DNA of 64,000 bases from NCBI GenBank assembly GCA_050084515.1, contig CM114271.1, positions 17,050,001 to 17,114,000 on the forward strand. The letters run 5' to 3'. Below the pieces are notes generated by a model that worked only from the letters and a program-made list of their open reading frames with translations, made no database searches and was not told the DNA's origin. Position 1 is the stretch's first letter; every line of letters begins with the position of its first letter. This document shows positions 1 to 45,500 of the stretch, piece by piece. The DNA comes from Blasia pusilla (Eukaryota). The position numbers and the translations under genes were made by a program.

Positions 1-170
1 GATGAACAAGTTCAAAGGTTGGTGGAGTCCAACGCCGATGAGAGCGAGCGGGCGATGGGATTTCCCATAGGAGTGACGGCAGTACCGTCAGTATCAGAGG
101 CATCACGACGCCATGTCTTGGGTCAGGCGATGGACTTGAACTGCTTCACATGGATCTTCAGCTTGGGAGT
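1..170 (+). pseudogene. C-terminal motifs IX-X of a putative C5 DNA cytosine methyltransferase domain (DNMT3/DRM-like) within the Gypsy pol frame
   Basis: Frame +1 reads LVESNADESERAMGFPIGVTAVPSVSEASRRHVLGQAMDLNCFTWIF, matching the E-x-E-R-x-x-G-F-P-x-x-x-T...R-x-x-x-L-G pattern of DNMT3/DRM C-termini. It is in the same frame as RT. Only the C-terminal end is visible. Confidence 0.72.
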
Positions 171-507
171 GGCTGAGCAGCGTCGGATGAGATCGCGACA
201 AATCTTAACGGTTGCGTTGGTGAGCCCCATGCCTACCGAGACGGTGGAGGCAGTGGTTAGGGGCGAGACCCAAGGAGATCGACACACCAGGGGAGATCGA
301 CAGAGACACCCTTGGACTTCTTGGGTTGTTTTGCAGGTACGCCAGGAGATGATAGCCATGGCATCGAGCGTGGTTCCGAGCACTAAATGTGGAGGAGATC
401 AGAGTTTGCACTTGGTTGCAGGAGAGCGGTCGAGTGTCGTTGTTTGAGATAGGGTTGCACCATAGCAACCACCGATATCCGCGTGGGAGACTCCTACCGT
501 AGTCACG

Positions 508-1965
508 ATGGAGATTTGGGAGCCAGATATGGGCCCTAAGTTGACAGAAGGAGAGCGGCGCCGAATACATCAGTTCCTCAAGAGTTATAGGAGCTACTTT
601 GCGTTTAACATGGAGGATTTGGGCAGGCTGAAGGGATCGGGGATCCGCATTGAGTTGTTGAGTGATACGCCGATCTTCCGACGACCCTACAGGTACATTG
701 ATATGGAGAGGGCTTTGATTCAGAGTAGGAGCCAGGACTTGGTTGGAGCAGGACTAGTGGAGATGTCGCATGGGGAGTATGCATCTGCCACTGTCATGCC
801 CGCCAAGAAGGATATGCACGGCAACTGGACGGATAGGCGGATGTATGGGGATTACCGACCTATCAATCGGCAGACGAAGTCGGATAGGTATGCCATGCCC
901 ATCCATGAGGAGATCTTTGATGCGATTGGTCACGTAAAGGTCTTCAGTTCATTGGATTTGCGAGCCGGATACCATCAGCTGCCTATCACATTGGAGGACA
1001 GGCATGAGACGACATTTTGGGGCATCGATCCTCACGGGAAGGATTTTTTTTGTATCGATGGCGGTTCTTACCATTTGGGTTAAAGAATGCCCCCGTTGAG
1101 TTTGAGAGGGTTATGGATAGGATCTTGGCTGGTCTGGATTTTGCTAGGTGTTATATTGATGACATCGTAGTCTTTAGTGTCACGGTTGAGGAGCATGAGC
1201 GACATCTAGAGGAGGTGTTGTGACCATTGCAATTACATGATCTCAAGCTACATCCAGGCAAGTGCAAGTTCTTCTACGACCAGATTGAGTACTTGGGTCA
1301 TACGATATACCCACCAGACGAAGGTAGAGGCTATCTCACGCATTCCACGCCCTACAGATGTGAGCCGTGTTCGCGCATTCATGGGATTGGCGAACTTCTA
1401 TCGGCGGTACGTCAAGGGATTCAGTTCGATTGCAAAGCCGTTGACCTTGCTGACCAAGGTGGATCACGAGTGGCACCGGGGGGATGAGCATGAGCAAGCA
1501 TTTCAATTGCTCAAGGACAGGTTGACGTCTGCGCCCATCTTGAGGAGACCAATCAAGGGGAGTCCTTTCCAGTTGCAAACAGATTGGAGCATGTTGGGGC
1601 TTGGAGCAATGCTCAGCCAACATGATGATGAGGGTAGAGAGTTCGTGGTGGCTTGCGCTAGCCGTTTGAACAACGTTGTAGAGGCAAAGTACAACTCGTA
1701 TAAGGGTGAGTGTTTGGCTTCAGTGTGGGCTCTTGCGCATTTCAGGTGTTACTTGTTCGGCAACCCCTTTACCATCATCATTGATCATCAACCACTGAAG
1801 TGGTTGATGGAGTCCGACAAGCTTACAGGGAAGCTTGCAAGATTGGCTCTGTTGTTGCAGGAGTATGATTTTCAGGTGGTCTATAGACCTGGAACGCTCA
1901 ACGAGGATGCAGATGGGTTGAGTCGTAACCCATGCTTGAGTCAGCGAGAAGCGAATGGAGCTTGA
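508..1965 (+). pseudogene. Gypsy reverse transcriptase + RNase H (frameshifted)
   Basis: ORFs 508-1083, 1017-1223, 1227-1487 and 1237-1965 carry consecutive RT/RH motifs. Confidence 0.95.
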
Positions 1966-2319
1966 TGGCATGGAGAGAGTGATGAGGAGTCAGTGCCAGG
2001 ATGGCACGCGTCATCCTATTTAGGCATGTTGGCTATGGAGAGCCAGAGTGTGGAGACTTCAATGGAGAGGTCTAGTGGAGAGTCCTTGGATCCCGAGGCC
2101 AGTGAGGAGACCACAGATGGCCGAGATATTCATGATGATGGAGTAGTCTTGGAGTACCTTTGTAATGGTAGCGTTGCAAGCACCATGGGTGCTAGAGAGC
2201 GGGATTGGATCCTACAACGGGCCAGACTGTTCCGTTGGGAGGGGACACATGTTTTAAGGGTTTAGGAGGATGGTAGAGTACGCGTAGTGCCGCATGCTTT
2301 ACAGAGAGCATGACTAGTG

Positions 2320-3419
2320 CAACATGCCCACAAGGAGTTGGGTCACTTTGGGGTGAAGCGGACGTACAACTTGTTCCAGATTCAGTATTGGTGGTGAGGC
2401 ATGCAGACTGACGTTCAGCAGTTTGTTGCCAGGTGCATGGTGTGTGATCGGGTCCGAGCATTGTTTAATGCTCCGACTCCACAGTTGCATCAATTACCGA
2501 TCATGGGCTTAGGATATAGATGGAGTTTGGATTTTGCAGCACCTTTGCCTTTGACAGAGCGTCACAGTCGTTATGTATTGGTGATGGTCGAGTACTTCTC
2601 GAAGTGGATTGAGTTGGTTGCATTGCCTGATAAATTGAGTGAAGGAGTAGCTTATGCCTTCCTTGACAGAGTGTTGAGTCATTATGGTGCACCAGCTGAG
2701 GTGTTGAAGACCAGCGCACCGAGTTTCGCGGTGAGTTCCAAGCCTTGTGTGATCAAGCGTTGATCGACCACCGCACGACTTTGCGAGATCATCCCGAGGC
2801 GGATGGATTAGCGGAGAGAGTTGTGCAGACGGTGAAGAGGGGTTTACGCAAGTATGGCTTGTAGAGAGGTCACCTAGGAGATTGGGACCTCCAATTTCCA
2901 TGGTTGGCGATGGGATACAGATTCAGCAGGCAGACATCCTTAGCGTCTTTTTCACCGTACTTCCTCCTTTATGGCTGAGAGCCAGATTTACCTACGGCCA
3001 TTTGTCGAGATGCTGGTGAGGTGTTGGACCTTGATGACCCAGATGTATGGATGCGAGCATGTTCTCAGAGGGCTGAGTTGTTTTGGAGAGTGATGCCCAC
3101 GGCGTTCGAGAAGTTGGCGATTGCGCAGCATCGGGATACGTTGAGGTATGCGAATATTCAGGGTGGTGGCTATCGACCAACTATCCGGAGGTTTCATCAA
3201 GGAGATTATGTCTACTTGCAACAGACGGCACCGACGATGTTGGATGTGACTGGAGGGCGCACTATCCTGAGAGTGCGTGACGTTTTCCCATCCGATATTC
3301 TCTTGCTGGAGGGACGAGATGGTATGGTATGGAAGGACCATGTGCGTAATTGTGCGCCATGTCACTTTCGTAACATTGATGGTACAGTAGATCCGAGCTC
3401 AGTAGTAGTTCTTGCATGA
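2320..3419 (+). pseudogene. Gypsy integrase (HHCC zinc domain + DDE core)
   Basis: HAHKELGHFG...CMVC; RWSLDFAAPLP; YVLVMVEYFSKW; GLAERVVQTVKR. Confidence 0.93.
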
Positions 3420-3566
3420 TTGCGTTGTATGTCGTGTGGTTCTGCTCGTGGTGCGGACACGATGTTAGTCTCTGATGGATGTTTGAGAGGTTGGCATATG
3501 GCATGTCTCACGCCACCTCTCACTAGGGTTCCTCAAGGACGATGGATGTGTCCTAGATGTGCATAG
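3420..3566 (+). pseudogene. PHD finger at the C-terminus of the Gypsy integrase
   Basis: After an in-frame TGA (3417-3419) the frame reads LRCMSCGSARGADTMLVSDGCLRGWHMACLTPPLTRVPQGRWMCPRCA*. This is C4HC3 spacing with one Cys->Ser change and the typical W-x-C-x-x-C end. Confidence 0.88.
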
Positions 3567-4096
3567 AGGAGATACCAGGTATGTTTCGATTCTGACTTTT
3601 TTCTGCGACTAACGATGGGGCCACATGAGCACCCGACCTTTATGCTCTTAGCGACCTAGAGATGTATGTCATGGTAGGTAGGGATAGATGACGATCTGGA
3701 GTTAGAGGGACCTAACCACTAGCTAGGGGGGGATTGGAGATATTTTAGTACTTCTTGTCTCGTTGTTTGGATGTCATGAGTTAGCATGGGATCGTGCGTG
3801 TTTCTGTGTGTGTTCGATGAAAGCGATGCATGTTGTGTAGCGATGTGTATGCGCACGACAGTTGTCACGTCTTTTAGGATAGATCCGTTAAATCTAGTAG
3901 AGTGCCTTCGTGAGTAGTGGAGGACAGATTAAGTAGGTCGAGGATGACCTGCTGAGGCCCCGAGAAACCTGAGAGAGCATGTTTTCCTTTCGTTTTGGCT
4001 CATTTGGAGCCATATTGAGGAACTTACTATTTTAGGTAAGTTCCATTTTGAGTATATGATCAACTTTCTATTTTTATTAAGTGGCCATTGACCTCC

Positions 4097-6463
4097 TATC
4101 TTGGATGCTCTTCTATCTTGCTTTGGAAATGGAAATCTAGCTTGTTTTCCAAATTGGCAAGTAGGGCATAACTCTAACATAGTAGGACTCGCTAATTTAG
4201 GAAGTATTAGTACTAGATTAGATGATGAAAGACTCTTTAATCTTTGAAGATTCATATTCCCAATTCTCTGATGTCACACATTTAGATATATAACTTGTGG
4301 TTTAGTTTGACCATACATTGATGTTTAAATTTCTGGCATAGAAACATCTAATTTGAATATTTTCCAGATCTTGTTCCTTTGGCTATCATATTCTGATCAT
4401 CAATTCTTTCAAGGAAATAACCATTTGTGTTAAATTTCACTTGATAACCTTGTTCTTCTATCTGTCATATAGAGATCAATGGTAGGAATATAGATAACAT
4501 TTCCAAGAGCACAAACACCATATGATGCTATTGGAACTTTATCTATATGCGTGATATAATGTTGAGTATCATCTCCTGTGAGCATTCATTGGCTCCATAC
4601 GACTGAACTATTTAGCTTGTAAGGTCATGTGATTTGTTGCACTAGAGTCGACATACCAATCTACTGTCGAGTCTTTCTTGATTATTGCTCTCATATGATG
4701 AATTTATAAATATTGTTGTTCTTGACACTTCTCTTGATGTTGTCGCTCCTCATAGTTTTGTTGTTGTAAAGCTCTCGTTCTCATATCTGCCTTCTTCTTG
4801 AAATACAACTTTATACAATAACCCTTTATACCACAGTAATTATAAAATCCAGGGATTCTCTGTTGCTGACTTCGACCCTAATGGTTTTCAACATGACAAC
4901 CTTGTGATTGTGTTTGGTATTGGTTTGTAGTTGGTTGAATAACGTTTTGTTAAGTGCCTCTTCCTCCATATACTTGATATTTACCACGATCACGGAAGTT
5001 TCTACCACAACCTCTGCCTCTATTTGATCCATTACCTACTAATAGCGCACTCTCTTGCATACTAGACAAGCTACCGCTGCCTACTAGGCGTCTTTCCTCA
5101 CTAATTAACGGAGGAACTGATTCTTGGAAGGTTGGATACTTCTCTCTCATAAAGATAAAGATCTCAAAAGACTTATAATATTTTGGAAGGAATTGAAGAG
5201 TGAACAAAATCAGATCATCATCTTTGACAGTCATTCCAATGCTATTCAACTAATCAACAATATGTCCGATACTGAAAACATAGTTATTAATATTTTGCGA
5301 TCCTTTTCTTACTTCGCTCAATTGTAGCTTTGGCCTTAATAGATGTTTGGAATAGCCTTTCCAATGCATCTCTTTCTTTCTTCAAAATATCAACATTTTG
5401 AATGTGACTTATTATTGATAAACATATATTTTCTGAAATATAGTTGATTACTTGCCTTACGTCTTTGTTTCAAGCGCGAACATTCAAGTCTGTTAAATCA
5501 CCTTCTGGTTTAGCCTCATCACAAGTAACAAGCTTCCATAGTTCTTGACCTATGAGAAGTTGTTTCAAGCGAAACTTCTAGAAATTATAATTATGTTTAT
5601 TTAGTTTCTCGTATATGATTTTGTTGACAAATACTCCATGAAGAACGATGTTACTCACAAAAATATATTTTCAGACTCTCCATGGCTCCAATTCAAGCAT
5701 TGAGCATTTCTTAACATAAATTGATATGAAAATTTCAGTATTAACCAATTGTATGAAAGAACTAGTCGAAATTGGCATATAGAGAGCAAACTGCACAACT
5801 CTTCTTTACTAATTGCACTTTCCTACACTAAAATTACTATTGCTAGAGCTAAGGATGTCAAAATTGATTAATTTTGCATGTGTTGGAAAGCTCTTAAAGA
5901 GTTCTGCAAGATGGTCAGAACTAGTCTTTGATATCCTTCTAACTAATGCAGACTCAGATTGCTAAATTGACCGGGAAAGCCCTAAAAAATGCCTACAAAG
6001 TTTTGTCCCCTCATAGCTCCACTTGAAATCTTTTGCTAGTGAGCTCTCAATGAAGTTTCCTTCTCCCAAACTAAAATTGTGCCTTCTCTTGCCTCTTTTA
6101 TTTTCTTAACAATAAGAATTTAAATTTATATTCTCATATAACTCTGATACCATGTAGAAAACTCCTAAAGAAGCATAACTAGTGGGATACGACTATCACA
6201 CTCATATATCACCATGGAGAATGAAATTTTGCAATGAGAGAATGAGTGGAGGCTCGTCCCCTTCTCAATTATATAAGATATATACAAGCCATCCTAACCC
6301 TGATCCCAACCAAAGTCTTAAGCTAGACTAATAGTTATAAACCAACTATAGTTAAGATAATCGTGCTTAACTCACTACTCAATTAAGCTTTCCTACTTCG
6401 TGTGAGTAGCAAATGTAACAATTCAGATGTTCAATGAGCTTGACTATAACTCAGTCTTTAATA
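4097..6463 (-). mobile_element. Ty1/Copia retrotransposon copy 1 (5' LTR, PBS, gag, protease, pre-integrase; truncated)
   Basis: Gag fragments (MNSIGMTVKDDDLILFTLQFLPKYY), GAG-pre-integrase CPTCQFGKQAR; colinear with copy 2 at ~8720-11158. Confidence 0.9.
6153..6463 (-). repeat. 5' LTR of Copia copy 1, with adjacent tRNA-iMet primer binding site (6142-6152)
   Basis: ctctgatacca (= TGGTATCAGAG on minus) abuts tgtagaaa; homologous to 10853-11158. Confidence 0.85.
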
Positions 6464-7721: not shown

Positions 7722-10700
7722 CATATATGCATGATATGTCACAAAGAATCCTTCATTTATGAATCTATGACTAAGATGTGTCACTCTACTTGATCTACGA
7801 AGTTAATTTTCAAAGATGGATGCCTCTGACACTTGACTTGAGCTCTAACTTATATCAACCGGCTGAATACGTATTCTTCTCGTCCATGGACTGACAGATT
7901 AACTGATGAATCTAGGACCTTTCCTAATTCTGCACTAGTACTTGGGAAATTTATAGGCAATATCTGTTGGTTGACAATCATATTCTCCGCCTCAATAGAC
8001 GAGTTTAGAGATGGAACAAGCTCAGATGGAGCAAACTATGACTTTAGTTCATCAAAGAAACCATCGCGATTAATAGTAAGCTTACTAGAGGATGGAATGT
8101 AGCACTTATACCCCTTAGTTCCATCAACATAGCCAATGAAGATACATCTTTCAGACTTGGGGTCTAATTTTTGACATCTTTCTGAAAAAAACATGAGCAT
8201 AACAAATACAGCCAAATACTTTCAAGAAGGAAAAATTAGGTTTATTGTCTGTAAAGACTTTGAATGGATTCTTATCATGAACTCATGTTGTTGGAGTTTG
8301 GTTGATTAAGAAGCCAACGCACGCAACAACCTTTGCCCAATACACCTTATGCATGTTCTTCTCATTCAATATAGCATGTGTCGCCTCAACAATATGTCGA
8401 TTCTTCCTCTTAGCCACTCAGTTTTGTTGTCGAGTATAATGGCAAGTCTTTTAATATTGGATGCCATTTTGATGTAAATAGTCATCAAACTCTGTTGAAA
8501 GATACTCTCCTCCTCCATCACAACGCAATTTCAGAATGTGTTCTTCAGTCTGCTTCTCTACTATAACTATGAATATTTGGAAAACTGAGAATATTTATTA
8601 CTTGGCTTTCAAAAAGTATATCCATATACACCTAGATAAGTCATCAATAAATGAAAGAAAGAACTGGAAACCACTAAGGCTATATTGTGATGTTGTGCAC
8701 ATATTAGTGTGAATCAACTCCATTATCTTGGATGCTCTTCTACCTTGCTTTAGAAATGGAGATCTAGCTTATTTTCCAAATTGGCAAGCAACGCATACCT
8801 CTAATGGAATAGGACTCACTAATTTAGGAAGTCCTATTACTAGATTAGATGATGAAATACTTTGTAATCTTTGAAGATTCATATGCCCAATTCTCTTATG
8901 CCATGCATTTACATCTGTGACTTTTTGGCCGGTTTGACCATACATTGTTGTTTGAATCTCTTGCATAGAAACATCTAATTTGAACATTCTCCCTGATCTA
9001 GTTTCTTTGGCTATCAAAGTATTGTAATCCATTATTTCAATGAAACAACCATTTCTATTAAACTTCACTTGATAACCGTGTTCTACTATCTGTCTTATAA
9101 AGATCAAGTTTCTTGCAATGGGAGGAATATAGAGAACATTTCCAAGAGCACAAAGACCATATGATGCTATTGGAACTTTAACGGTATGCGTGATATGATG
9201 TTGAGTGTCATCTTCTGTTAGCACTATTGCAAAATCTTTCACTAACTCCATACTACTGAACCATTTTGCTTGTGAGGTTATGTGATTTGATGCACCAAAG
9301 TTGATATAGCAATCCGTTGTTGAGTTTCTCTTGACCATTTCTCCTATATGATGAGTCATGACCAAGAGATACTTAGTTTGTATATGTTGTTGTTCTTGAT
9401 ACTGACCTTGGTGTTGTTTCTCAACATAATTTTGTTGCTATAAGGCTCCCATTCTCATATCTGCCTTCTTCTTGAACCAAAACTTTGTAGAGTGACTCTT
9501 TATTCCACAGTAATTGCAACATCCAGAGACCCTCTGTTGCTCATCTAAACTCAAGAGTTTCCACCATCATCACCTTGTGATTGTGTCTGATACTGATTCG
9601 TAGTTGATTGAGTGACGTTATATTCAGTGTCTCTTCCTCAATATGTTTGATATCCACAAAAAACACGAAAGCTTCTACCACGACCTCTGCCTCTGTTTGA
9701 TCCATTACATGTAAATAGCGCACTCTCTTGCATAATAGAAGAGCTATTGCTGCCTACTAATTGTATTTCTTCACTGATTAGTAATGAGACTAACTCTTGA
9801 AAGGTTGGATACTTCTCTCTCACAGAGATAGAGGTCTCAAAGGACTTGTAATCCTTTGGAAGGCCTTGAAGAGTGAAAAAAATTATATCATCATCTTCTA
9901 CTCTCACTCCAATGCTATTCAATTGATCAATAATAAGTTTGATACTCAAAACATAGTCATTAATGCTCTACGATCCTTTCCTCACTTCATTTAATTGTTG
10001 TTTCAATTGAAGCTTTCTAGCGTTTCTTTATGTCTAGAAAAACTGTTCTAATGCATCCCTCTTCTCCTTTGGAGTATGAATATCTTGAATGTGACCTATC
10101 ATTGGCAAACTGTTTATTATTGAAATGTAGTGGATTATCTGTCTTGCGCGTTTGTTCCAAGCGCGGACTTTCAAGTCTGGTGAGTCAACTTCTAGCTTGG
10201 CCTCATCACCTGTTACAAGTTCCCATAGTTTTTGGCCCATAAGAAAATATTTCATTCAAAATTTCTAGAAATTGAATTTTTTTAATCTAGCTTCTCGCTT
10301 GTGATTGTTGTTGAAGAATACTCCATGAAGAACGATTTCTCACTAAAAAAATGTAATTTCAGGCTCTCCAATGCTCCACTTCAAACATAGATAACTCCAA
10401 AACCAAATTTGACCTAAAATTTTCCAAAATTGATCAAATGTATGAAAGAACTAGTTGAAATTGGCATGTGGAGAGCAAGTTGCTCAACTTCTCTTCACTA
10501 ATTGTACTTTCCTATAATGAAATTGCTAATGCAAGAGCTCAGAATGTCAAAATTGAGTGATTTTGGATGCGTTGGAAAGCTCTCAACAAGCTTTACAAGA
10601 CGGTTAGAACCATAATTTGGCATTTATCTGAGAGACATGGACATTGATTGCTAAATTTATCGAGGAAGCCCTAAAAAATACCTCCAAAGTTTTGTCATTG

Positions 10701-42355: not shown

Positions 42356-42535
42356 ACCTGTCCACTCTGCATGAACCCACCATACTTTCTTAATATGTTT
42401 CGGATCTCAATGTTGAACCTATATACCCAAAGAAGGCGTTTTGTCCCACTCCCAACCAACGTAGCCATTTATTCCATGTATAATTGGTGAGTCTTAACTG
42501 GCTACACTACAAACTACTCTACAATTGATAATTCA

Positions 42536-45500
42536 ATGTGCCTTATTAATGGCCACAACTTCCGTAGACGAAAGGGTACGACTTCTCAAGAAATAGCACA
42601 TAAACAGAGGATGCTTTATTGCAAGACTCACGCAAAGTTAAGACTTGCCAACGCTATGAAGTCAAAGCAGAGGTATGTGTGTTGGATATGGCTAGACATT
42701 CATACATTATTAAAACGCTCGACTTCCCCGTGTTCATCGTTCGTTACCAAAATGAGATGTTGTGGCTATTGTGGAACTATGAGCTATTACACCCCAACTT
42801 GCGGCATGAGAACTATCACCTCACATGTATATCCACCCTATGCCCTGTGCAATGGATACATGGCTAGCTATGTTATTCCAATTGTTGCATCCTTCTATAC
42901 ATGCCGCCGTTATGTTTTGTCTGTTGGTGACACTACATGTAATGTTTATATGACGCGTGCTTATATTCGAGATATATTGGAGGTGAATCCCATGCATCTT
43001 CAACTATTGTCTTTCATTGACTCCAATATAGGTATCAAGGCCAAATACAATGGCTTTCATAGGGGTTTTTTTCAAGTAAATTCCCTCATTGACTATCCCT
43101 TGATTTCTTGGAGTTCATCCACTGCTACACCTATTGATCTTGACTTCATCTATAGGCAGGTGAAGAAATTTCTCTTAGTTAATCTACGGGTTAACAAGCT
43201 GTATCTACATTACATGGCTCTCATTGAACTCTCTAATCCAAGGTGTGGTCTGGTGGTATTACCATCTTCATTTTTTTATACTATTCTTAAGGCATCTGAA
43301 GAAAAAGGAGAGCTTATGCATAGTATGGCAGCCGACCAATATAGTACAAAATTTATTGTTCTTCAAGATGTTCAATACTCTTTACCTATTAAAAAATGTA
43401 AGTTATACAATATTTTTCACAATGGCAATGTATTTTTCAAAGACAGTGCCGAAACGAGAGATCAGTTCCTCAGTGATAATGAGATTTCAATTTATTCACA
43501 ATTGACTATTGAAATAGGTATCTCCCCATTCCTGTTTCCCTACACGAGAGGGTATTTCACATGTGAGTTATCATTTTTTTATTACATGCGAATCCAGATA
43601 GGGGAGCTTTTTAGTGTCTTCACGTTGTATAAACCATATGCCCTACTCGTGCACCAATTACGATCGTCCATAATTATAGCCTCTTCTAGTCGTACATGCA
43701 TTCTTAATAGAGAACTCCAATATTTGAAGCGTACAAACTCGGACTTATCGAGCAAGGAGATTTATTCCCAGCTTTCTAGACATACCTTTACTGCTTGGAA
43801 GTCCATCTTGGCATCACCGTCACCTCGAGGATTTAAGGGCTATGGTAGCAAAATGGGGAATGCCCAATTTTTTTTTGATATTGACCTTGGACGAGGTGTC
43901 TGATACAAAGTGGCAAGAAATCATTGAGATTGAACAAGTAGTACAAAAGCTAAATCCCAAGTTTTCATGGAGGGACGCTCCAATTGAGTGCGCAATCTTA
44001 TTTCACACAAGGTTCAAGACATTTTTCAGTTATTACATACTTTTTGGGCCTCAGATTCTTGGCCGTGTCACCAACTACCTAATCCGATATGAGCTACAAG
44101 GTAGAAGGAGTCTTCCTGCTCATATAATTCAGTGGATCAGCAAAGACGACATTAATCACGTAGCATCTGAAATATGTTGTTACATACCTGTCGTATCCTG
44201 TTATGTTCACAAGAGGGCTAGCCATGCTGATCCACCACATACGCTCCATCACTATGTGACTACAAAACAAATCCATACATGCAAATAGGAGGTATGTATC
44301 ATTAAGGCAACTAAAACCCGTCCACACTACTGTCGAATGGGATTTTCCAGCAAACCAAGTTTTTCATTGCAGCCATTCATTGATAATAAAACTTTGAAGT
44401 GGACATATTATAGGCCTAGGGAATCTCACCGCAATGTCATATCGTATCATCTGGCCATCCTACTCTTAAGGGGGGCACACATGAACCTACAAAGGGTCAC
44501 CAATGTTTAGTGGTCATTCTATTTACTAAAATATGCACTAAAGTGTGAACCACATGGAGCACTAAACATTACAACAGAGTGTGCACGATGTCTGGGACTA
44601 GAGGGTCTAGATGAAGTTAGGTTGAAGTTAATATCTTGGCTTGTACTTAATAGATTTGTGTCATCTAGTGAAGCTGCTCTCACATCCCCTAAAATCCCCA
44701 TCATTTGTAGGTCTTAGTCCGTTTAATATATTGACTCAAGCCCGCCACACAGATGAACCCACCTATACAAGAATGCCACGATTCTCTCCATACACCCAAC
44801 TATATTATACTCCTATCGACCGGACTCATTGTCTCAACGGACCTTTTTTCAGTTCTGGTCTTCTTATTAAATTCATAAGGCTCATAGTAAAGATAGTATT
44901 GCTTTTCTAGGACACGACTTGCTTGGAAACTTAATTTATAGAATTGATCGGCTGGTCCGCTTTACAAAATTCCATCCGATGCACTAGTGGAACGAGTTTT
45001 TCTATACTACTTTATTGCGAGGTGTTGCTTTTAGAGCAGAAACAGAGCTACTTAGTGTTGTTTCTCCACAGTGGTCCTATCTCCATGAATGTATCTACCG
45101 AGGCATATTTACAGATCAGTCCTTAATTGTGGATGAAATCATAAGACATATGGATGCGAACATGTAGAGTGAAGTTCATGCTGGTGAGATCATTTTTAAA
45201 GCCCAGACCTTTTTCGTCCTCACTTACAATTCAACATTCCTCTTGACCCATACACAACACAGACCTTCCACTCTAGCCATATTATCACTGAGGACCAATG
45301 TTCACAAACCCAGATACCCAATAATATCCTTAACCCAGAGAAACTTCACCTTTTCCATAGTATTAAGGATCTGAAAATCCGGCCTTATCATGTTAGCGAG
45401 ACCACATGGTTGTGGAAAAACCTTTTTCATGCATTTCATGCAAAAATATTTGACCAATACCTCTGTTGTTTCACTGATGGCTGCCACAATAGCGATTAAT

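Follow-up and report, generated by a model that had tools for sequence, protein, structure and literature searches.

Transposon-borne cytosine methyltransferases

Cytosine methylation is the main weapon of the host against transposons, and it is on that account paradoxical for a transposon to bring along a de novo methyltransferase. To our knowledge, transposons with a methyltransferase of their own have been described only in dinoflagellates and in one charophyte alga. We examined a stretch of 64,000 nucleotides from Blasia pusilla (GenBank assembly GCA_050084515.1, contig CM114271.1, positions 17,050,001 to 17,114,000 of the forward strand), here called the window, in which all positions below are counted. 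Positions 1-4300 are read as a dead Ty3/gypsy retrotransposon of which the 3' two-thirds are present and which belongs to the Gypsy-DNMT3 kind of streptophytes. Judged jointly with the mechanism proposed below, this reading is considered likely.

C5 methyltransferases borne by retrotransposons of dinoflagellates and of the charophyte Klebsormidium were reported by de Mendoza et al. (2018, PMC5890265), a paper that a preliminary description of this locus had invoked and whose content is as it was cited. The Discussion of that paper admits that the purpose of transposon-borne DNMTs is unclear. KnitGypsy-Dnmt3 of Klebsormidium nitens, likened to the window family by its published description and not by its enzyme sequence, shares with it a non-rearranged DNMT3-type domain inside an intronless streptophyte gypsy coding region. 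The key catalytic residues of KnitGypsy-Dnmt3 are kept and purifying selection is indicated on both sides, with a Ka/Ks below 0.2 there and a corresponding ratio of 0.13 here. The capture was treated in PMC5890265 as an event of the K. nitens lineage, whereas members are found here in Marchantia, Calypogeia, Sphagnum and Closterium. The enzyme was placed there in the Pol polyprotein, whereas it is found here at the end of the first open reading frame (ORF1) before a stop of the leaky type, and the published repeats are DIRS-like, whereas some of the present relatives have ordinary direct repeats. SymbioDIRS-Dnmt3 and SymbioLINE-Dnmt of Symbiodinium (PMC5890265) are likewise retrotransposon-borne C5 methyltransferases under purifying selection, but they belong to the DIRS and long interspersed nuclear element (LINE) classes, in another host kingdom, and were taken there to be independent captures. 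According to the Discussion of PMC5890265, the DIRS-borne DNMT3 methylated CG in DNA. Self-methylation is argued there for this enzyme, the suggested gains being host-like DNA, protection from deamination and tempered transposition; RNA methylation is raised for the LINE-borne enzyme, and effects of transposon-derived methylation on the host are discussed.

The Gypsy-DNMT3 kind is therefore already known, and a 2026 preprint still cites 'streptophytes (Gypsy-DNMT3)' as the prior case. The relatives of the window element have a DNMT3-type domain in an intronless gypsy frame under purifying selection, and the window copy is a dead member of the same kind. Apparently new are the bryophyte and Closterium members, the position of the enzyme at the end of ORF1, the junction stop and the PHD finger. 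No description of bryophyte or Closterium members was found in the main texts of the literature searched, the supplements of which may list bryophyte sequences, nor was one found in those main texts of the ORF1-terminal enzyme, the junction stop or the PHD finger. Marchantia and liverwort have no occurrence in the main text of PMC5890265, and no mention of the identifiers of six Marchantia gene models was found in the literature searched. The streptophyte and dinoflagellate elements are named 'LTR Copia and DIRS' in PMC12344493 (2025), where PMC5890265 (2018) has the streptophyte element as Gypsy.

The known range of a rare kind of element is thereby extended to bryophytes; its family occurs widely among them and in Closterium. 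The main value of the finding lies in Marchantia polymorpha, a model liverwort that is genetically tractable, in which at least 15 gene models of the family have been annotated but not described. The enzyme before the leaky-type stop and the PHD finger on the integrase are two anatomical points that bear on mechanism, and the window copy, a dead relic, has no functional interest of its own.

A DNMT3-type methyltransferase fragment at the start of the window

Positions 1-444 (+ strand, 148 residues) read as the end of a DNMT3-type C5 cytosine methyltransferase followed by a C-terminal tail, directly upstream of a reverse transcriptase (RT), RNase H, integrase and PHD part. The only stops in frame +1 from base 1 before the RT frame, which is opened by ATG at 508, are TGA 445-447 and TAG 463-465. 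This continuity of the frame through two single-codon stops had been pointed out in the preliminary description and was confirmed by translation.

A protein search with the 148-residue translation matched 12 longer proteins (E 5e-32 to 3e-7), those with names coming from the liverworts Marchantia polymorpha and Calypogeia fissa, and eight of the 12 had a precomputed match to PF00145. In a fresh Pfam scan of ten of these 12, seven exceeded the curated PF00145 cut-off of 22 bits. The cut-off was also exceeded in five of seven relatives in another scan and in ORF1 of the related locus L014, and the scores of the relatives above it were 27-51 bits. Among the ten re-scanned relatives, an aspartic protease was located upstream in P0011 and P0012 and an RT downstream in P0012. 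Window positions 1-444 scanned alone gave no Pfam family, the fragment being too short. By HMMER, the stretch of the relatives that matches window residues 14-46 aligns with motifs IX-X of human DNMT3A, and through the relatives window residues 14-26 (motif IX) and 36-45 (motif X) align with the DNMT3A motifs. Judged from these sequence comparisons, the likeness of positions 1-444 to a methyltransferase is beyond chance.

The complete domain was seen in full-length relatives. The Marchantia protein P0004 (Mp_4g09160, 1278 residues) has a Gag bearing two CCHC knuckles, then a D-S-G protease, then the whole methyltransferase, whose motifs read LFGG (I), GWPCQG (IV), ENV (VI), SxAHR..WTN, ADERERAMGF (IX) and VLGQAMD (X). 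Motifs I, IV and VI had been expected to lie upstream of the window, and all three were found in relatives of the same arrangement, motif I being LFGG or LFAG, so that the refuting outcome named beforehand did not arise. When 24 sequences with 31-96% identity to P0004 were aligned, the catalytic motifs hardly varied.

The motifs IX-X had been ascribed to the DNMT3/DRM type, and the comparisons with solved structures narrowed this to DNMT3. In a phmmer search of PDB with P0004 the best match was DNMT3A (E 1.7e-8), followed by DNMT3B and 3C, with far weaker matches to HaeIII (1e-3), a DRM (2.6e-3) and DNMT2 (0.02-0.09). The family profile strengthened the DNMT3A match to 4e-21, with 3C at 1.5e-18 and 3B at 1.6e-17. 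An AlphaFold model of the intact L001 domain had a predicted local distance difference test score (pLDDT) of 88 and a predicted template modelling score (pTM) of 0.89, and every Foldseek match to it listed through rank 50 was DNMT3A, 3B or 3C (E ~1e-18, target template modelling score, TM, ~0.8). The motifs run in the order I, IV, VI, IX, X along both P0004 and L014, and DNMT3A aligns colinearly, with no permutation of the DRM kind. These results support the assignment of positions 1-444 to the C-terminus of a DNMT3-type C5 cytosine methyltransferase.

The host enzymes DNMT3A, 3B and 3C (e.g. 6w89, 6f57, 8tci) are thus the best match in both sequence profile and fold and have the motif order I-IV-VI-VIII-IX-X in common with the element domain, but the identity is only 20-23% and the element domain is fused to Gag-protease. 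Pfam scans of the element proteins detected neither a PWWP nor an ADD domain. These two domains define the architecture of animal host DNMT3 enzymes and not the catalytic fold.

The C5 methyltransferase fold also includes RNA enzymes, and it was considered whether the domain could methylate RNA, either the genomic RNA of the element or a primer tRNA, in the manner of DNMT2. The weak DNMT2 matches and the suggestion made for the LINE-borne enzyme (PMC5890265) point in that direction, but sequence and fold are much closer to DNMT3A/B/C than to DNMT2 and the DIRS-borne DNMT3 relative acted on DNA (PMC5890265). Methylation of RNA is accordingly regarded as improbable.

Intact relatives and the stop between ORF1 and reverse transcriptase

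Related loci (L numbers) were collected from metagenome contigs scanned with the pattern ERAMGFxTG, which gave 173 stretches, of which 128 encoded a relative and 80 were kept. Frames of at least 500 codons were present only in L014 and L018. ORF1 of L014 (1369 residues) has protease and DNA_methylase domains, ORF2 (1047 residues) has RT, RNase H, integrase and PHD domains, and the two lie in one frame with a single TAG between them and no intron. By tblastn, residues 1200-1260 of L014 ORF1 map to window positions 1-183 and residues 24-1034 of ORF2 map to 517-3560, where the alignment falls into four pieces and the frame changes three times, with 58-66% identity in the RT. This agrees with the earlier claim of a gypsy element with a methyltransferase in frame upstream of RT. 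The further claim that the methyltransferase takes the place of a protease-RT linker within pol is refined: the enzyme is located between protease and RT, but in the intact relatives it is the C-terminal domain of ORF1 (Gag-protease-DNMT, Gag-PR-DNMT) and a UAG precedes RT. In L018, which is almost intact, positions 127-414 upstream of the gag frame hold two tandem copies of a 144-nt unit that are 78-79% alike.

The junction was compared among the 51 loci in which both flanks were located. A stop was present in 12 of these, as TAG CAA CCC in seven, TAA CAA CCC in one, TAG CAG TTA in two and TAG CAA TCA in two, and was shared between subfamilies with a protein identity of about 50%. In eight loci of the close subfamily the distance from this stop to the start of the RT alignment is 45 nt, which is also its distance in the window; the L014/L018 group has the stop further upstream of that start. 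Annotated Marchantia proteins, P0004 among them, have their C-termini at the equivalent point. Since TAG 463 is conserved among loci and TGA 445 is private to the window copy, the former is a natural feature and the latter a product of decay, and the two stops that had been treated alike are of different origin.

Efficient type I readthrough in plant viruses, of the sort seen in the replicase of tobacco mosaic virus, has the consensus UAG-CAR-YYA (Firth and Brierley 2012, PMC3542737). A full match to it was found in the window and in L014, L019, L018 and L071; the stop is conserved, and the downstream frame is open in L014, where the 1047 codons of ORF2 follow in the same frame. As a motif match and by its conservation, features read from sequence, the junction UAG is a natural stop of the leaky type.

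Selection on the methyltransferase

Ratios of nonsynonymous to synonymous substitution rates (dN/dS) were calculated by the Nei-Gojobori method for the two intact elements L014 and L018, a test that had been proposed for the family and that was in line with a domain under constraint. The methyltransferase gave a dN/dS of 0.129 over 336 codons, at a dS of 1.33 that is near saturation and makes the ratio of 0.13 approximate. The corresponding ratios were 0.152 for the protease, 0.40 for the ORF1 tail and about 0.03 for RT, RNase H and integrase. The 62 enzyme codons in the window gave ratios of 0.06-0.12 against related loci in seven of the nine comparisons with a finite value, dS being saturated there also. 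The tail of the window copy is included in Table 1; at about 271-306 it contains a short tandem duplication (GDRH..GDRQ) that was absent from all aligned relatives.

It could be supposed that the domain is a fragment captured from a host and plays no part in the life cycle of the element, which would carry it as an inert passenger or a structural spacer. The death of the window copy, the few loci with an intact domain (four of the 80) and the ratios near 1 in some subfamily pairs would fit such a domain. The ratio between the intact elements, however, was as low as that of the protease, the catalytic motifs hardly varied among sequences whose overall identity is only 31-50%, and the domain has been kept not only in Closterium, liverworts and a moss but also in a second element architecture. 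We therefore hold an inert passenger to be very improbable.

Distribution and a second architecture

When the Marchantia domain was used as query in a region search, 78 proteins were obtained, 15 of them named Marchantia polymorpha, with one each from Calypogeia fissa, Sphagnum fallax, Monoraphidium neglectum and Haematococcus lacustris and one labelled as a bacterial metagenome-assembled genome (MAG). At E<=1e-30, <=1e-10 and <=1e-3, a profile search of 1.84 billion representatives gave 412, 1563 and 8732 clusters, respectively. Among the best 150 representatives a retroelement part was also present in 96, including all 57 that were at least 1200 residues long. Seventy-nine of these 150 had the order RT-RNase H-DNMT-integrase-PHD (RT-RH-DNMT-INT-PHD) or parts thereof and seventeen were of the window type, with Gag-PR-DNMT followed by RT; three of the window type were from Closterium species.

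The second architecture, with the enzyme between RNase H and integrase (e.g. P0039, P0061 and P0081), was therefore the commoner form. Its methyltransferase, including that of the Monoraphidium and Haematococcus fragments, is about 40% identical to the present one (E 1e-65 to 1e-45). The C-terminal PHD finger on the integrase is common to both types but the position of the enzyme differs. In a FastTree phylogeny of 164 domains, which was confined to rows that have a flanking retroelement part and a domain of 280-420 residues, the two architectures formed the two sides of one branch (Shimodaira-Hasegawa-like support 99; unrooted, no bootstrap). In P0083, which carries a Spirochaetia MAG label, a match to this eukaryotic transposon enzyme occurs together with an integrase and a PHD finger; the protein probably stems from eukaryotic DNA that was binned into a bacterial genome.

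For the RNase H frame of the window the closest named relatives were from Calypogeia (74% identity), Riccia (74%) and Marchantia (70%), and a Klebsormidium RT-RH-INT protein was 55% identical to the RNase H region. No Klebsormidium methyltransferase was among the named matches of the fragment search and of the region search with the Marchantia domain.

An association of enzyme and element by artefact, whereby a host DNMT3 gene adjoins a gypsy element or was mis-assembled with one, might be suspected from the window, which holds only the last 62 codons of the domain. The junction of enzyme, stop and RT recurs, however, in 12 loci on independent contigs, L014 has one continuous intronless frame, and the 15 named Marchantia gene models and all 57 long representatives stand against such an origin as well. 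On this sequence evidence an artefact appears already contradicted and is barely conceivable.

A proposed role in methylation of new element DNA

Stop readthrough is the usual means by which retroelements set the ratio of Gag to Pol. In the mechanism proposed here, most ribosomes would stop at the UAG and yield abundant Gag-PR-DNMT, and rare readthrough would yield the full polyprotein. Because the enzyme closes the Gag-protease frame ahead of a stop of the leaky type, it is expected in the amounts of a structural protein. Both products would be built into virus-like particles, in which the protease would free the enzyme; fused to Gag-PR until then, the enzyme would be carried in every particle subunit, beside the complementary DNA (cDNA) during its synthesis. 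Using S-adenosylmethionine, it would methylate cytosines of the element's own new DNA, whether cDNA or a fresh insertion. The PHD finger on the integrase may read histone tails at the target and thereby guide integration. The likely gain would be that new copies are pre-marked in the way of resident host DNA, which would temper their expression or shield them from responses to unmethylated DNA.

Alternatively, the enzyme may act in trans on the host genome or on chromatin near insertions, where it could spread methylation, titrate host silencing or mark neighbouring genes. Enzymes of the DNMT3 type act on chromatin, the element has a histone reader in its PHD finger, and termination at the UAG would supply enzyme at Gag level, far beyond what the cDNA of a particle would need; host effects of this sort are among those discussed in PMC5890265. 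The PHD finger, however, is located on the integrase end of the readthrough product and not on the enzyme, and the fusion of the enzyme to Gag-PR would point to packaging in particles. Self-methylation of new element DNA is ranked first among the possible activities and action in trans second, the latter being unlikely.

It is also possible, as a tentative proposal that we consider more doubtful than not, that the elements from zygnematophyte algae (Closterium) through liverworts and mosses form a single old gypsy lineage in which a DNMT3 writer, made at Gag level before a programmed UAG readthrough, and a PHD reader on the integrase set the methylation of the lineage's own new DNA and are needed for its persistence. 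If this were true, the purpose of transposon-borne DNMTs could be tested by Marchantia genetics and methylomes.

In addition to the near-saturated dS mentioned above, several points weigh against the reading of the window as part of a self-methylating Gypsy-DNMT3 element. Enzymatic activity, substrate, packaging and readthrough of the element products are predictions. Motifs I, IV and VI are known from the relatives alone, about 270 upstream codons of the enzyme being outside the window, and at otherwise invariant positions of the enzyme fragment the window copy has three private substitutions. Two stops precede RT, and eight stops and three frame changes occur in pol; because of the pol stops, the frame changes and the private substitutions, the window copy is dead and makes nothing. 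Among the 80 loci the methyltransferase domain is free of stops in just four. In the closest metagenome subfamily (9 loci, 36 pairs, dS 0.004-0.26) dN/dS was 0.31-1.04 with a median of 0.57, a spread that fits a mix of selection during activity and neutral decay after insertion. That subfamily has CAA CCC after its stop and fits the readthrough motif in only five of six positions, and eight more distant loci read straight from enzyme to RT with no stop between them, as do the proteins P0012 and P0037. The 5' end of the window element is outside the window, and direct repeats that would form a pair of long terminal repeats (LTRs) were sought in L003 and L014 and none were found; the distant relatives L050 and L037 have flanking direct repeats at a spacing of about 10 kb (926 nt, 74% in L050; 176 nt, 88% in L037). 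Finally, in three RNA runs from the same organism no reads at >=95% likeness fell on window positions 1-400.

Features of the window element and its surroundings

The features of the element are listed in Table 1. Within the window the order is RT, RNase H, integrase, and in the relatives the protease lies upstream, which is the Ty3/gypsy domain order. The integrase range is interrupted by stops at 2311 and 2395 and by a frame change near 2730, with further stops just upstream at 1963 and 2263. The PHD finger has a Ser at one zinc-binding Cys position and is preceded in the same frame by stops at 2862, 2976 and 3417. Chromoviruses are gypsy elements with a chromodomain on the integrase. A chromatin-reader module at the integrase C-terminus is common to them and to the present family, as a chromodomain in the former and a PHD finger in the latter. 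The family profile of this PHD finger matched the PHD fingers of KMT2D, KDM5, CHD4 and ATXR5.

Table 1. Features of the Gypsy-DNMT3 copy in the window, with the evidence for each
Feature	Position	Strand	Evidence
Last ~62 codons of DNMT3-type catalytic domain, truncated by window edge	1..186	+	Translation, 12 relatives, DNMT3A alignment
Motif IX core, E-x-E-R-A-M-G-F-P-x-G-x-T	~40-78	+	Alignments with relatives and DNMT3A
Motif X, R-R-x-V-L-G-Q-A-M-D	~106-135	+	Alignments with relatives and DNMT3A
ORF1 (Gag-PR-DNMT) C-terminal tail, poorly conserved	187..444	+	Alignment; dN/dS 0.41-0.66 against related loci
TGA, decay stop private to window copy	445..447	+	L001, L002, L007, L008 and L064 have the junction stop only
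TAG CAA CCA, conserved ORF1 end, in frame with RT	463..471	+	Sequence, junction comparison
Reverse transcriptase, broken; frame 1 to ~1044, frame 3 at 1050-1313, stop at 1221	508..1313	+	Weak RVT_1, tblastn
RNase H	1561..1866	+	PF17917 E 4e-31 and PF17919 E 5e-29, in frame 1237-1962
Integrase (zinc-binding H2C2 and catalytic core), approximate coordinates	2270..2800	+	L014 ORF2 Pfam domains via tblastn
PHD finger, pol C-terminus	3426..3563	+	Translation; PF00628 at L014 ORF2 residues 990-1034 aligns
Pol stop TAG	3564-3566	+	Translation
3' untranslated region and probable LTR remnant, end uncertain	3567..4300	+	Likeness to L001, read and contig depth

The nucleotide likeness of the window to L001 ends at 3867, and RNA reads and the high summed depth of DNA contigs drop off at about 4200-4400, which places the 3' end thereabouts. 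In the three RNA runs 135-163 reads at >=95% likeness were located on 600-4200. Since most of them fit only in part, these reads come from related copies and say little either way on expression. The ratio of observed to expected CpG was 0.52-0.76 and the TpG/CpA excess was 1.27-1.35 in L014, L018, L001, L003, L008 and window positions 1-3600; the CpG ratio of the window background was 0.68-0.69 and does not discriminate it from the elements, even the intact ones.

A second copy of the segment was sought in the 64 kb with the fragment and both L014 ORFs as probes and none was found. An open frame of 470 codons at 42491-43903 (+) and further frames of 175-298 codons in GC-richer blocks at 46-53 kb and 26-33 kb matched no Pfam family. 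Copia-type fragments with a weak match to Retrotran_gag_2 and with gag_pre-integrs and Pol_BBD are located shortly downstream of the element at 4950-5246 (-) and 8769-9434 (-).

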